Source: a virus (lineage: Duplodnaviria > Heunggongvirae > Uroviricota > Caudoviricetes). Taken from it: 36,877 bases of DNA. This document shows, piece by piece, positions 1 through 6,000 of the stretch. Location: IMG/VR virus record IMGVR_UViG_2874927903_000002; one strand, 5' to 3'. Position 1 is the first letter of the stretch. Every line of letters starts with the position of its first letter. Made by a program: the position numbers.

Positions 1-3000
1 ATGACCGAATTTACAACTCTTCTTCAGCAAGGAAACGCCTGGTTCTTCATCCCCAGCGCCATCTTACTTGGTGCGCTTCATGGTCTGGAACCAGGGCACT
101 CAAAAACGATGATGGCGGCGTTTATCATCGCCATCAAAGGCACCATTAAACAGGCGGTGATGCTCGGACTGGCAGCAACCATTTCGCAGACCGCGGTGGT
201 CTGGTTGATTGCCTTTGGCGGGATGGTGATCAGTAAGCGCTGATATGACTTTCCGTGTCAAACCGGAATCTCTAATTTTGACGATTTTCTTTTTAGGTTT
301 AATTCCCTGAGGGCGACGTAGCAGTAAATCCGACGGTGAATCACGCTGATATTCGCGGGTTGGATACCGCATTACAGAGGTCCGTCATATGAGCCTGCCA
401 CTTTCTTACGTCGCGAATCAGCTTTGTTCCGCCGTCGCCAAGCGCTAACGTGGGTTACTCTTGTACCGGGCTACGTCGCCTTCAGGGAACTGGTTATTCT
501 CATTTTTTATTTGTGACATTGTGGTTGTTGTGCGACAGACATTGCTATTCGGCCCATATCCCAGATAAAACCCGCCAGCTCACGTGCAACAGCAACAATT
601 GTAATATTGACATTCTTTCCTTTGGCCTGAAGTTTTCGATACCTCTTACAAAGCCTGAGTTGAGCATCCCATGCTCTGTCAATGACGGGGCGGGGTAAAT
701 TTTCCTGCCTTTTTTGTATTGCCGGACTGATGCGTGCCGGATGACGGTAACTCCACGCTGCCTCGACCAATAGCTTTCTGGCATAGCTGTTTCCGGCTTT
801 GGTAATGCTGCCCTGATGTCTGCTTCCACCCAATGAATATTCTGATGGCGTGATACCAAACCATGACATCAGTTGTCGTGGATGTTCAAAACGGGTCAGA
901 TCACCCAGTTCAGAAATTAATCCAACCGCAGTAATAAACTGAATCCCTCGCATGGCTTGCAGCGCCTCTACTACCGGATACAGCCTCCATTCGGTAACGG
1001 CCTCCTTCAGGGCGGATTCCAGCCGTTCACATTGTGCCTGCCGGTCTTCTATTGTACGACGGTGTTCGTCAAAAGCTAATTGTCGCCAGGGACTTTCGAA
1101 TGAGTATTTGCTGAGCCAGCGTCGGTGTGCAGGGCCCCAATCTGCTCGCCCGACATAATGGACCCCATGAACCAGAAGAAACGATTTCAGACGTTGCCTT
1201 GCATGCCGTAAATCATCGCGGGCAGATGCCCATGCCCGGGCCAAATCCCGGAATGCCTCATCTTCAATACCGGGTACGTAGACAGCAGAAAGATCTCCTG
1301 CACGCAGTGAACGCACAAGTCTGATGGCATCACGGCGATCGGTTTTAACCCGCTCCCCCGGTTTTTTCGGGATAAGTGAGGGGGCGCAGACCATGCAGTC
1401 AAAACCGGATTTCACCAGCCGACGATAAAGTCCATAACCACAGGGCCCCGCTTCATAAACGATACTGACCTGCGATGACTTTGACCTGAGACGTTTACAA
1501 AGATTCTGAATATCAGTAGGTGATGTGCCAATTTTACCCATCAGTTCAACAGGTTCTGAATTGATAGCATAAGCGACAGTAATCGATTCTTTGTGAACAT
1601 CTAACCCGACGTACAATGTGTTATTGTTGTTCATGCTGGCCTCCGTGGTGGAAATACCGGGGTGTAGCAACAGCTCACCCATGCGGCTCTGACAACGATG
1701 TTAACCCGCGTTAAATATCCCACGTTGGCCAGCATCTGTCTCACGGAAAGTCATACTGCCTTACTTTAATCCGTTTTCTGAGCTTAGATTTTTCTGTTCC
1801 TACCCAGACCGTGGATTTGGAATTCATTTTTTGTCAGGTCAATGCTAATCGTTAAAACGGCCATAACGCACCTCCACTGGAAGGTTTATCAGTAATATCC
1901 TACCGTTGCTTCATGGTCGGGGCGTCCATTCCATTATTATCGGTTTTCCTTTCTGTTTATAAATGAAAACGCCAGCTGTATTCAGGCTGGCGTCAGGAGA
2001 AATGAAGCCTGTTGAGTGAGATTCACCGGTTCTGGTGCAGAAGCTGCAGATGGCGCAGGGTAAGGACATCTTCTCTTGCCTGCTTAATACAGGACAACAG
2101 TGCTGTTTCTGTGGTTAATGGCACTATACCCTGTATCACTGCATTGTCTTACAGCAACTGGTGAGGGCTGGCATAAGTTGCCGGTGTTTCGGTAGAGTCA
2201 CGGTCATCCACCACGCGGAGTGAATAACCGTTTTCAGCGGCCTTATTAATCAGTTCAGTGATATTAACACCATCAATGTCAACGACAATGTGTCCCATAT
2301 CCAGCGCCTGTACGTTAACGCTGTCGGCTTCCAGTGTCATCATTTCGCCTCCGGATACTTACCCAGGGTAATGTTATTTACCGTTCTGTAATTGTCGCGG
2401 GTCATCAGGCCGGTCGCCCTGCGAGCCCGGAGGATATCGATGCTGTTTATTAACTGAGAGCGGGTACAGGCGCTGAATCCCGGCTGGTCGGTACGCACCA
2501 GCGCGTATTTTTCCACGAGAAAGTTCACCGCATCACACAGTGAAATGCCTGCCTCAATATGCTGCTCAATCACACGTTCATCGGCAAAAGGTGTGTCATT
2601 CAGTGTGAGGCCATAGTGCTGGTCCAGCAGTCGGGACAGCAGTATCTGCCAGATTTCAACAGGAGACGGGCGAGAACTGGCCGCCTGCCCGGGTAATACA
2701 GGTAATGTTTTCATACTGAAGATTTTCCTGATATGCAGATATAAAAATGGAAAAGTGGCGTGGTGAAAACACCAGGCCGTAGCAGAAGGCTATTCTGGAG
2801 AGTTAATTTTTCATTTCGGGCGTCGGATAAACAGCCAGATAAACGTAACCACAACTGCTGAGGGTATCGGCTTTGCAGGTCAGCCCTTTTGCATACAGCG
2901 TGACGGTATGCTGATGGCGGGGATTCAGTTCACCGCTGGTGAGCATGAGTTCCAGTTGTTTCATCAGCAGCGGAAAGGCCTGGTCCAGGTGGTACGCATC

Positions 3001-6000
3001 TGCATCGCTGAACAGGCCTCTGATACCGGCGCGGTCGGCAAGGTAATGCAACCGGTTACCCTCCTGCACCAGACGTGCCCGAAACAGGGCGTCACGGTGC
3101 AGGGCAGCCCCCACCAGGGGCGGTCGTGATTGTCGTCGGGAAGTGTTGTCCCGGGGAGTGTGTCTGACACGATAAAATCCTTACAGAAAATCGGCTAAGA
3201 ATGGTCCGGTAGTGGCGATAATTCTGCTCATCAGAATTCCCACTCAGTTCAGGGTGACGCTCATCAGCCGGACATACGGACCAAAACTGTCCTTACGGCG
3301 TTCAGCAAACACGGCCAGCACACCGGGAATATCCTGCACTTCACGACCGGTATACGCTTCAGCACTGCCGTGCCAGCGGTATTTACCGGTACAGAACGGA
3401 AAAAGACGGGATGTCGGATGTTGTTGGTGAATACGCATGGCTTCACCACGGGTGATAATTTTCATAATGGGATACCTCTGAAGACAGAAGATAAAAGTGA
3501 AAACAGGTGTGATGTGGTTGTGAAGGGTTAAAGCAGACCATGTTCGGCAAAGGAGAAAACCTGGTTGCCACCGACTATCAGATGGTCCGGCACCCGGATA
3601 TCCACCAGGCCCAGTGCCTGTACCAGACGTTCGGTGATAAGCCGGTCTGCCTTACTGGGTGTGACTTCACCGGACGGGTGATTGTGTGCCAGTACCACGG
3701 CAGCGGCATTGTGGTACAGGGCGCGTTTAATCACTTCCCGGGGATGGACTTCCGTGCGGTTGATGGTGCCGGTGAAGAGGGTTTCACCGGCAATCAGCTG
3801 ATTCTGGTTGTTCAGATACAGCACCCGGAATTCTTCACGCTCCAGTCCCGCCATGTTCAGAATCAGCCATTCCCGTGCTGCACGGGTGGAGGTGAAGGTC
3901 ACGCCGGGTTCATGAAGATGGCGGTCCAGGGTTTTCAGGGCCCGTTGAATGAGGCTGCGCTCGCCGGGAGTCATCTCTCCGGGCAGAAAGGAAAGTTGTT
4001 GCATTGTGCTTCTCTCCATTCAGTCGATGATGCGCATAATGGCGCTGCATTCCGGATGCTGCAGGGCGTAATCCCGCAACCGGTAATAATGGACCGTCAT
4101 GGCATAATTCTCCGTACGACAGGCATGATGACTGTACGTCATCAGACAGGCGGCAATACCGGCGGCTTCCGGGCTCATTTCTGCGCGGTTACCGTTCATG
4201 GCATTGAACAGTACCCATGTTTCGTCATCATCGTCATCCGGTTCGGGTGCCATAAATGCCCCGCCGTTGTTCAGGGTGTACAGATTCCAGATACCACCGC
4301 AGTAGTCTTCGCACAGACGGTCCATCCAGCCGAAGACACGGGGCTCCAGGGTCACCCACTGTGGAATGAGGCCAAAATGCTGCGGCCAGAAGTTGATGCG
4401 CTGTTCATCAGGGACGAGGCTGGCAACCAACTGAGGCGGATTATTCTCTGGTGTTGTAGCTGAATAAATTGTGGGGGTATTCTGAGAAACGGTTTTCATG
4501 AGATAACTCCTTAAATAACAAATAAATGTGTGTTTTTCAGGAACGAAAGCTGAATGATTCCCTCACTCAGGGAAACGGCATCAGCGCAGGCTCTCCAGCA
4601 TCGTTTCTGCCATCACCCACAATGCGCGATTGAGCTTAATGTCGGTATCAATGCTGTGAATGGCCCGGGTATGGATACGTTTTCCTTTTGCACTGCGACC
4701 GGAAATCCCGCCTTTCAGCATATTCTCCTGGATGGTCTGATATGCGCTCCACAGGTCCTTACCGTAATCCTCCGGCGTCGCGGCGTCAGAATGTCGGCGG
4801 TGGTGACGGGCTGATGTTCGTCACCATAACGGTAAGTCAGTGCCGCCTGTGCCAGCGCCTGGCGTGCCGGTGGCGGCAGGACCAGCGACTGCATGGCATC
4901 ACGCTTCTCCTCTATCCGGTCAAACACGCCCACCACCTCGTAAGCCCCTTCGATAACTTTCTCCACTACATTTCCCCGGTGTGGAACACGCACTTCCCCA
5001 GAGACTGGCCACAGACGCACCCGTTCTGGCAGACGAACCTGAAGTAACCCGGCAGCATCTGGTAGCTGGAGGTACCGTCATGAGAGTTGAGCAGAATAAT
5101 TTCAGGGACATGTTCTCCGTTTATCTCTCCGGCCCGCCGCAGACGCAGCATGTGTTTTGTGTATCCCGGCGGCCCGGGTCGCGCACACGGGTCTGGCAGG
5201 CGAAGAACGGCTGAAAGCCTTCCCGCTGCAGATTTTCCAGGACGGTAATGGTGGGAATGTACGCATACCGTTCACTGCGGGAGGTGTGCCGGTCTTCCCC
5301 AAAAATACTGGGTACATGGCGTATCAGTTCTTCATGTGTCAGCGGACGGTCACGGCGTATCTGGTTTGCAGCATAACCAAAACGACTTGCTAGACTGGCC
5401 CCCTGAATCTCCAGACAACCAGTATCACTTAAATAAGTGATAGTCTTAATACTAGTTTTTAGACTAGTCATTGGAGTACAGATGATTGATGTCTTAGGGC
5501 CGGAGAAACGCAGACGGCGTACCACACAGGAAAAGATCGCAATTGTTCAGCAGAGCTTTGAACCGGGGATGACGGTCTCCCTCGTTGCCCGGCAACATGG
5601 TGTAGCAGCCAGCCAGTTATTTCTCTGGCGTAAGCAATACCAGGAAGGAAGTCTTACTGCTGTGGCCGCCGGAGAACAGGTTGTTCCTGCCTCTGAACTT
5701 GCTGCCGCCATGAAGCAGATTAAAGAACTCCAGCGCCTGCTCGGCAAGAAAACGATGGAAAATGAACTCCTCAAAGAAGCCGTTGAATATGGACGGGCAA
5801 AAAAGTGGATAGCGCACGCGCCCTTATTGCCCGGGGATGGGGAGTAAGCTTAGTCAGCCGTTGTCTCCGGGTGTCGCGTGCGCAGTTGCACGTCATTCTC
5901 AGACGAACCGATGACTGGATGGATGGCCGCCGCAGTCGTCACACTGATGATACGGATGTGCTTCTCCGTATACACCATGTTATCGGAGAGCTGCCCACGT

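Follow-up and report, generated by a model that had tools for sequence, protein, structure and literature searches.

The locus carries a CbtA/CbeA module

The window, that is, the whole stretch of 36,877 nucleotides analysed here (IMG/VR virus record IMGVR_UViG_2874927903_000002), contains an intact type IV toxin gene, cbtA (yeeV), on the minus strand at 2340-2714. The complete ORF has 124 codons, and its product covers the whole CbtA_toxin profile PF06755 (positions 1-112 of 112, E = 3e-58, 195 bits; Pfam cut-off 25 bits), the toxin family of CbtA/CbeA pairs. At the DNA level the gene is identical to the E. coli W5-6 gene for WP_000854814.1. The same accession stands for CbtA of K-12 MG1655, and the window protein is thus identical to K-12 CbtA. 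The end of cbtA is overlapped by 4 bases by yeeW (2149-2343, minus strand), an ORF of 64 codons with a DUF5983 N-terminal domain (PF25638, E = 2e-29) that is annotated as yeeW in W5-6 and K-12. The antitoxin gene cbeA (yeeU; 2803-3170) lies directly upstream of the toxin on the same strand. From the gene coordinates, the two are separated by a spacer of 88 bases (2715-2802, minus strand), and the K-12 spacer likewise measures 88 bases (Wen et al. 2017, PMC5371832).

The module continues upstream on the minus strand with yeeT (DUF987; 3244-3465; PF06174, E = 2e-39; annotated in W5-6 and K-12). Next come a yeeS-like RadC/JAB domain gene of 158 codons (3528-4004; PF04002) and an antirestriction protein gene of 159 codons (4020-4499; PF03230), both identified from gene calls and the W5-6 annotation. 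A DUF932 gene follows at 4581-5471 (gene calls and alignment), and its 5' side is cut by an IS. All neighbours expected of a CP4-44-like (P4-like) cryptic island, from the antirestriction gene through yeeS, yeeT, cbeA and cbtA to yeeW, are present, and the DNA of the module is 99.9% identical to an annotated E. coli module. An IS110-family element inside rcnA (238-1764, minus strand; PF01548/PF02371) forms the left edge of this island remnant. The other edge is a second, inverted copy (7022-8548, plus strand), found by self-match, which is 99.9% identical to the first with one mismatch and no gaps.

One base is absent from cbeA in the window

Translation of cbeA from the GTG at 3170 yields 31 correct CbeA residues (MSDTLPGTTLPDDNHDRPWWGLPCTVTPCFG), followed by nonsense and a stop at 2964. 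The other 91 CbeA residues (ARLVQEG...PEMKN) are encoded in a different frame, within an ORF of 103 codons at 2803-3114. The gene is therefore read as two ORFs, one with 68 codons (2964-3170) and one with 103 (2803-3114). Alignment to W5-6 revealed a single absent base as the sole cause of the break. At 3078-3080 (plus-strand coordinates) the window has CCC where every comparator (E. coli W5-6, S. boydii CDC 3083-94, CP026814.1 and CP026762.1) has CCCC, so that the coding strand reads GGG instead of GGGG. The repaired cbeA encodes 122 residues, of which 121 are identical to YeeU/CbeA of PDB 2H28. Both the repaired product (178 bits) and the 103-codon fragment (153 bits) match PF06154 (CbeA_antitoxin; Pfam cut-off 27 bits).

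The sequence-only reading had placed a full-length CbtA-family toxin next to an antitoxin split across two frames at 2340-3170. This interval is exact, and both statements hold for the sequence as given. The break is no chance pattern; the doubtful point is whether the organism itself lacks the base.

cbeA is intact in same-lineage chromosomes

Over 13,114 bases the window is 100% identical to chromosome CP026797.1. It was compared with CP001063.1, the finished chromosome of Shigella boydii CDC 3083-94 (PMC2974192). Across 12,243 bases around the locus this alignment contained 0 substitutions and 5 gaps, each of them a one-base deletion in the window assembly. The runs affected are G8, C4 (in cbeA), C3, C5 and C4. 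Apart from the one in cbeA, the sites are located 48 bases ahead of the first base of the window and near 4771, 4995 and 5164. An intact cbeA of 122 codons is present in CP001063.1, CP026814.1, CP026762.1 and CP026866.1, all of which have the rcnA::IS110 context. In CP026867.1 cbeA is broken elsewhere: a G3 run corresponding to window position 3138 is contracted to G2. The intact antitoxin frame of a CbtA/CbeA pair is lacking in the window as given and found in four same-lineage chromosomes; we attribute the lack to a probable assembly error. A corrected sequence with an intact cbeA had been named beforehand as the result that would overturn the claim of a disrupted antitoxin. The same-lineage chromosomes provide it indirectly: their cbeA is intact, the IS-flanked context is identical, and 12 kb contain 0 substitutions.

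Deletions in the window and sister assemblies

G/C runs of at least 3 bases make up only 801 of the 12,243 bases, yet hold all five deletions, and 316 A/T runs are untouched. There are 13 G/C runs within cbeA, and a contraction there is unremarkable, since ~0.27 hits are expected in the gene at this assembly's rate. In CP026814.1 and CP001063.1 the DUF932 gene is a single ORF (297 or 315 codons). In the window assembly, one-base G/C-run contractions at three places in it, near 4771, 4995 and 5164, leave fragments of 46, 83 and 116 codons. Three further one-base G/C-run contractions are found in the IS66 copy of the window. A 376-codon IS66 fragment was matched only in three long-read chromosomes, an ambiguous result. 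The contractions are unevenly spread, since the housekeeping stretches of the window (ruvC-yebC-nudB-aspS and yecD, ~5 kb) have no indel relative to E. coli O104:H4.

Seven sister assemblies carry between 0 and 10 one-base deletions each and 0 insertions. We counted 6 deletions in CP026866.1, 10 in CP026867.1, 7 in CP026872.1, 3 in PTES01 and 1 in CP026762.1; the draft assemblies LPTN01 and CABWCZ01 of the lineage have no such deletions. In the sister chromosomes with neighbouring accessions the deletion sites are private and mostly different, again with 0 insertions. Longer runs are hit more often, and 6 of the 7 sister assemblies have the G8 run contracted. Residual homopolymer deletions are a known artefact class of unpolished long-read or flow-chemistry assemblies. 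The pattern described here, homopolymer indels with few or no substitutions against a finished near-identical genome, and errors that are deletions only and private to each assembly, is that of this class. We found no papers that cite CP026797 or its sister accessions or document its sequencing platform. Judged from these alignments, the cbeA frameshift is very probably an assembly artefact.

Distribution of the deleted and the intact junction

The deleted cbeA junction occurs in 0 of the 4,536 complete E. coli genomes that hold the segment, and a 70-base query across the junction had no match of at least 99% among complete E. coli genomes. For 2100-3500 the best matches among complete E. coli genomes reach 99.9% identity and contain one gap, and the identical allele is absent. 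Neither species-representative genomes nor metagenome contigs contain the deleted junction (0 in both sets), compared with at least 120 metagenome contigs and 5 representative genomes for the intact one. Look-up returned no record of the 68-codon N-terminal fragment or of the truncated tail protein J ORF of the window. NudB (169 codons) was tried as a probe for further members of the lineage and given up; being too widespread, it retrieved unrelated E. coli.

The 103-codon fragment was found on five contigs. We initially considered its carriers as evidence of a real, shared allele and dropped this idea: they represent four different haplotypes, and 3 of the 5 assemblies are visibly indel-rich, with split dacD, FUSC, permease and DUF932 genes. 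The one-base cbeA deletion is thus present on at least three other haplotypes, namely UGAJ01/PSSP01, AFOB02 and a Logan contig from SRR15372919 (in two samples). In a Logan contig from another strain the cbeA deletion is the sole indel in 1,780 bases. Given this recurrence, the G4 site may also be a genuine slippage hot spot.

Discussion

We consider it highly likely that the locus is an ordinary CbtA/CbeA (YeeV/YeeU) type IV pair and that the cbeA frameshift is absent from the organism, being a consensus error. The pair would be carried by a CP4-44-like island remnant in the Shigella boydii-lineage chromosome CP026797.1. A long-read-type assembly that under-calls G/C homopolymers would have read GGGG as GGG in cbeA, and a true G4 sequence would encode a normal antitoxin of 122 residues. 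From assemblies rather than reads we infer the long-read-type platform, G4 as the true sequence and the error itself. The cbeA defect, which is private to this assembly, almost certainly arose as an error of sequencing, so the locus appears ordinary.

A real frameshift is an improbable alternative. It would mean that cbeA has recently become a pseudogene in this one isolate of the S. boydii lineage, with the intact cbtA tolerated by low native expression and/or by YafW/YfjZ/YagB-type antitoxins that shield FtsZ and MreB in trans. An upstream IS insertion may also have separated the module from its promoter. A consensus scan is compatible with such a separation: no minus-strand sigma-70-like promoter match lies in 2715-5500, and the only two minus-strand matches are both downstream of cbtA, a match count not above chance and hence of little weight. 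IS elements and pseudogenes abound in Shigella genomes, and within the window both rcnA and the DUF932 gene are disrupted by an IS. The genotype with an antitoxin-less cbtA would be viable, judging from K-12: loss of all three CbeA-family antitoxin genes left growth and viability unaffected, toxin and antitoxin genes are transcribed at a low level, and CbtA is neutralised by the paralogous antitoxins YafW and YfjZ (Wen et al. 2017, PMC5371832). The Logan contig whose only indel is the cbeA deletion also speaks for a real event. There is a small chance that the deletion is real, that an active CbtA gene persists there without its cognate antitoxin, silenced by low expression or by paralogues in trans, and that the G4 run is a recurrent hot spot, hit on at least four haplotypes.

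Several observations stand against a real frameshift. Among same-lineage chromosomes otherwise free of substitutions over 12 kb, a single assembly has the deletion, alongside four other differences that are likewise one-base deletions in G/C runs. Five true indels without a substitution in 12 kb would scale to roughly 1,800 frameshifts genome-wide. The sister assemblies bear different private sets of the same deletion type. A paralogous antitoxin was sought within the window, and none was found. A mismatch-repair-deficient mutator strain was ruled out by the 0 substitutions in 12 kb, as such strains gain substitutions as well as indels. The sequence-only reading had left two branches side by side. 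The evidence supports the artefact; there is no need for the biological branch, in which the toxin would be silent, tolerated or neutralised in trans. As a whole that interpretation is partly supported.

It is very improbable that the G run acts as a phase-variable switch, or that ribosomal frameshifting still produces full-length CbeA from the GGG allele. The identical deletion on at least four haplotype backgrounds does indicate recurrence, by error or by mutation, but no population polymorphism is visible, the short allele being absent from the complete E. coli genomes and metagenome contigs surveyed. The G run has only 4 bases, and known phase-variable tracts are far longer. Programmed frameshifting and reinitiation were ruled out from the sequence itself: a -1 shift would be needed on UUC GGG C, which is no slippery heptamer, and no Shine-Dalgarno sequence precedes the internal GTG at 3114, the would-be start of the 103-codon ORF.

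Whether the frameshift is real or not, the locus poses no puzzle. If it were real it would add little, as the viability of antitoxin-less K-12 and the cross-protection by paralogues are already known. The value of the finding lies mainly in quality control. In the region examined, CP026797.1 and several neighbouring accessions have about one G/C-homopolymer deletion per 1-12 kb. Apparent pseudogenes in these chromosomes need checking against reads or sister genomes before they are read biologically; calls of an "orphan toxin", of split IS transposases and of prophage gene decay are at risk. As a counterweight, real pseudogenes do accumulate in Shigella genomes.

The window resembles the homopolymer artefact class in that its indels are deletions only, occur only in G/C runs, are private per assembly and are commoner in longer runs; it differs in that the platform of CP026797.1 is deduced rather than confirmed. 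S. boydii CDC 3083-94, CP026814.1, CP026762.1 and CP026866.1 share the rcnA::IS110-yeeW-cbtA-cbeA-yeeT-yeeS context with the window but, unlike it, have an intact cbeA. For CP001063.1 the five one-base G/C-run deletions are the only difference over the 12,243 bases.

In K-12, CbtA binds FtsZ and MreB and thereby blocks division and elongation, and CbeA, without binding the toxin, opposes its action by enhancing the bundling of both FtsZ and MreB filaments (PMC5371832; PMC5624674). By analogy with the identical K-12 CbtA, the window pair probably acts in the same way. The CP4-44 pair of E. coli K-12 also shares the order yeeS-yeeT-cbeA-cbtA-yeeW, the spacer length, the CbtA protein and, after repair, a CbeA that matches 2H28 at all but one of its residues. 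It differs from the window, where cbeA as given is short of one G in the G4 run and the island is a remnant between two inverted IS110-family copies, beside a truncated rcnA and not at the K-12 position. YkfI/YafW (CP4-6) and YpjF/YfjZ (CP4-57) have the two Pfam families and the mode of action in common with CbtA/CbeA, and their antitoxins cross-neutralise non-cognate toxins (PMC5371832). These two pairs, neither of which is present in the window, differ in lying on other islands and in having a 20-base spacer (PMC5371832).

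A single missing base breaks the cbeA frame

The last part of a CP4-44-like island module lies on the minus strand of the region; it comprises an antirestriction gene (4020-4499), the RadC/JAB gene yeeS (3528-4004), yeeT (DUF987, 3244-3465), the antitoxin gene cbeA (2803-3170) and, after a spacer of 88 bases, a complete 124-codon ORF of the toxin gene cbtA (2340-2714), followed by yeeW (2149-2343). The cbtA product matched the full Pfam CbtA_toxin profile (E = 3e-58), and the gene does not differ in DNA sequence from the one encoding WP_000854814.1 in E. coli W5-6. The frame of cbeA is broken. 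Codons 1-31, counted from the GTG at 3170, are correct and are followed by nonsense up to a stop at 2964; the remaining 91 codons are found in another frame, inside the ORF at 2803-3114. One missing base causes the break: at 3078-3080 the plus strand reads CCC instead of the CCCC of the reference, so that the coding strand has GGG for GGGG. When the base was put back, a 122-residue CbeA was obtained that is identical at 121/122 positions to crystallised YeeU/CbeA (PDB 2H28). The full-length toxin beside a frame-disrupted cbeA, as described in the sequence-only reading, was thus confirmed along with its coordinates. The 103-codon cbeA fragment is unlikely to supply function, because the first 11 positions of the CbeA domain profile are missing from it and no Shine-Dalgarno sequence precedes its GTG.

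Lineage context of the window

A search with the 103-codon fragment led to the chromosome CP026797.1 (GCA_002950315.1, 4.49 Mb), which is 100% identical to window positions 1-13114. IS elements are abundant in the window, and it was collinear with no complete E. coli genome. It starts within rcnA (nickel/cobalt efflux, PF03824; 1-243, plus strand), of which an IS110-family element leaves 80 codons. With the shortened RcnA product as query, chromosomes of the same lineage that have the identical junction were recovered, including that of Shigella boydii CDC 3083-94 (CP001063.1; PMC2974192). Since the exact truncated product was recorded in 323 collection blocks, the truncated rcnA is a genuine marker common to the lineage. 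The CP4-44-like remnant is bracketed by two inverted IS110-family copies that differ by one mismatch (238-1764, minus strand; 7022-8548, plus strand). In CP026866.1 and CP026872.1 the bracketed segment has the opposite orientation relative to rcnA, an indication that recombination between these copies has inverted it.

Single-base deletions in G/C runs of same-lineage assemblies

An intact 122-codon cbeA in the same rcnA::IS110-yeeW-cbtA-cbeA context was found in CP001063.1, CP026814.1, CP026762.1 and CP026866.1. Over 12,243 aligned bases, CP026797.1 differed from the finished CP001063.1 by 0 substitutions, 0 insertions and 5 gaps, all of them one-base deletions in the window's assembly and all within G/C runs. 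G/C runs of at least 3 bases make up 801 of the 12,243 aligned bases; 316 A/T runs were without change. Besides the C4 run in cbeA, the deletions shorten a C3, a C5 and a C4 run of the DUF932 gene (minus strand, 4581-5471); these contractions, at about 4771, 4995 and 5164, break it into pieces of 46, 83 and 116 codons. The remaining one affects a G8 run that lies between rcnR and rcnA in CP026797.1, 48 bases ahead of the first base of the window. All four contractions share the signature of the cbeA defect.

Each chromosome with a neighbouring accession was compared with CP001063.1 likewise. No insertions were seen in CP026866.1 (6 deletions, 4 substitutions), CP026762.1 (1 and 0), CP026814.1 (0 and 3), CP026867.1 (10 and 6), CP026872.1 (7 and 3) or PTES01 (3 and 3), nor in the drafts LPTN01 (0 and 3) and CABWCZ01 (0 and 0). 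Nearly all deletions of the series fall within G/C runs, and their sites mostly differ between assemblies; the G8 run is shorter in 6/7 sister assemblies. In CP026867.1, cbeA is broken at another run (G3 to G2, equivalent to window 3138), leaving an 82-codon call, and nine further deletions occur in 12 kb.

The same kind of contraction was observed elsewhere in the window. The IS66 copy (about 8549-11044) has 3 indels relative to an E. coli copy of 99.4% identity, all one-base G/C-run contractions (9728, 9850 and 10545), which split the IS66-family tnpC into 123 + 376 codons and alter the tnpA/tnpB junction. The exact 376-codon product was recorded only in three long-read-type chromosomes. With 13 G/C runs in cbeA, about 0.27 deletions are expected there at the assembly's local rate, and a deletion in this gene is therefore unremarkable. 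Housekeeping sequence of the window (about 5 kb) had 0 indels against E. coli O104:H4; this counts in favour of a real mutation, yet it is compatible with the two expected at that rate.

Two further regions were noted. Several tail genes of the lambdoid prophage (19600-35140) look disrupted: the protein J ORF (22115-24766) has 883 codons versus 1,157 in E. coli NMBU-W12E19, one-base indels lie beside C runs at 24634 and 26855, and near 29690 the tape-measure gene falls into two parts of 500 and 489 codons. Against a comparator 93-97% identical, these disruptions fit decay and assembly error alike. E. coli O104:H4 C227-11, in whose annotation nudB overlaps aspS, lacks the 125 bases that lie between these genes in the window (13066-13190). 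This is a deletion in O104:H4, not a window feature, because other E. coli keep the window's arrangement.

Real mutation or consensus error

The cbeA frameshift is very probably an assembly artefact, a consensus error in an ordinary characterised toxin-antitoxin pair. The pattern points to long-read homopolymer under-calling as the cause; no paper stating the sequencing platform of CP026797.1 was found. Among 4,536 complete E. coli genomes containing the segment covered by a 70-base junction query, the deleted form was found in 0/4,536, the best identity being 98.6%, which corresponds to one gap. The exact 34-base deleted pattern matched neither a species-representative genome nor a metagenome contig (0 hits in each set); the intact 35-base pattern was present in 5 species-representative genomes and at least 120 metagenome contigs. 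The possibility of an assembly error, already raised from the sequence, is thus strongly favoured: the deletion is private among relatives, bears the G/C-run error signature, and its junction is absent from the complete E. coli genomes, representative genomes and metagenome contigs searched.

That the deletion is a real mutation in the window's organism is improbable. The identical deletion does occur in four other assemblies representing three further haplotypes. The E. coli assemblies UGAJ01 (UGAJ01000001.1) and PSSP01 (PSSP01000001.1) have a common haplotype; each is visibly rich in indels, and many of their genes are split. The PSSP01 assembly accession adjoins that of PTES01. Both also carry a one-base cbtA deletion outside a homopolymer (GCGTAC to GCTAC, equivalent to window 2494), resulting in an 87-codon toxin, and the haplotype may be a real lineage with cbeA and cbtA both inactivated. 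AFOB02, another carrier, has a split FUSC gene and also an A7 to A6 contraction. In the Logan SRR15372919 contig (1,780 bases, two samples), the cbeA deletion is the sole indel; five clustered substitutions in the 3' portion of cbtA (corresponding to window 2415-2442) look like a patch from a paralogue, and the contig may represent an allele that truly exists in another strain. In addition, the cbeA site may be a natural hot spot of slippage, though a rare one. Read as real, five single-base deletions with 0 substitutions in 12 kb would imply about 1,800 frameshifts genome-wide. Such a pattern would not arise from ordinary decay, nor from a mutator background, which raises substitutions as well. 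As a by-product, the consensus-error reading carries a warning on homopolymer deletions in CP026797.1 and its sister assemblies.

Comparison with the characterized CbtA/CbeA system

The sequence-only reading had also considered a toxin kept silent, tolerated or neutralised in trans, an interpretation for which there is no need. If the frameshift were real, this puzzle would already be answered by experiment (Wen et al. 2017, PMC5371832). There, with single antitoxin deletions taken from the Keio collection, deletion of cbeA, yafW and yfjZ together left growth and viability unchanged, YafW and YfjZ blocked CbtA toxicity, and toxin and antitoxin genes showed low-level transcription and no autoregulation. 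No paralogous antitoxin was found within the window. The IS inserted in the DUF932 gene cuts the cbeA-cbtA module off from upstream DNA, and a consensus scan, which is weak evidence, found nothing resembling a promoter between 2715 and 5500 on that strand, the minus strand.

In the literature, CbtA is described as binding FtsZ and MreB and as blocking division and elongation (PMC5624674). CbeA does not bind CbtA and promotes FtsZ and MreB bundling (summarised in PMC5371832). The toxin and the repaired antitoxin have every sequence-level feature of the CbtA/CbeA family and of a CP4-44-like module; the only one lacking is the intact antitoxin frame, and this is confined to the window's assembly (CP026797.1). 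With the base restored, the locus would, judged from its sequence, be a textbook CbtA/CbeA type IV system. It would be expected to work as in K-12 through the steps known from the literature, the toxin being identical: CbtA of K-12 MG1655 has the same protein accession, WP_000854814.1, as the product of the window's cbtA.
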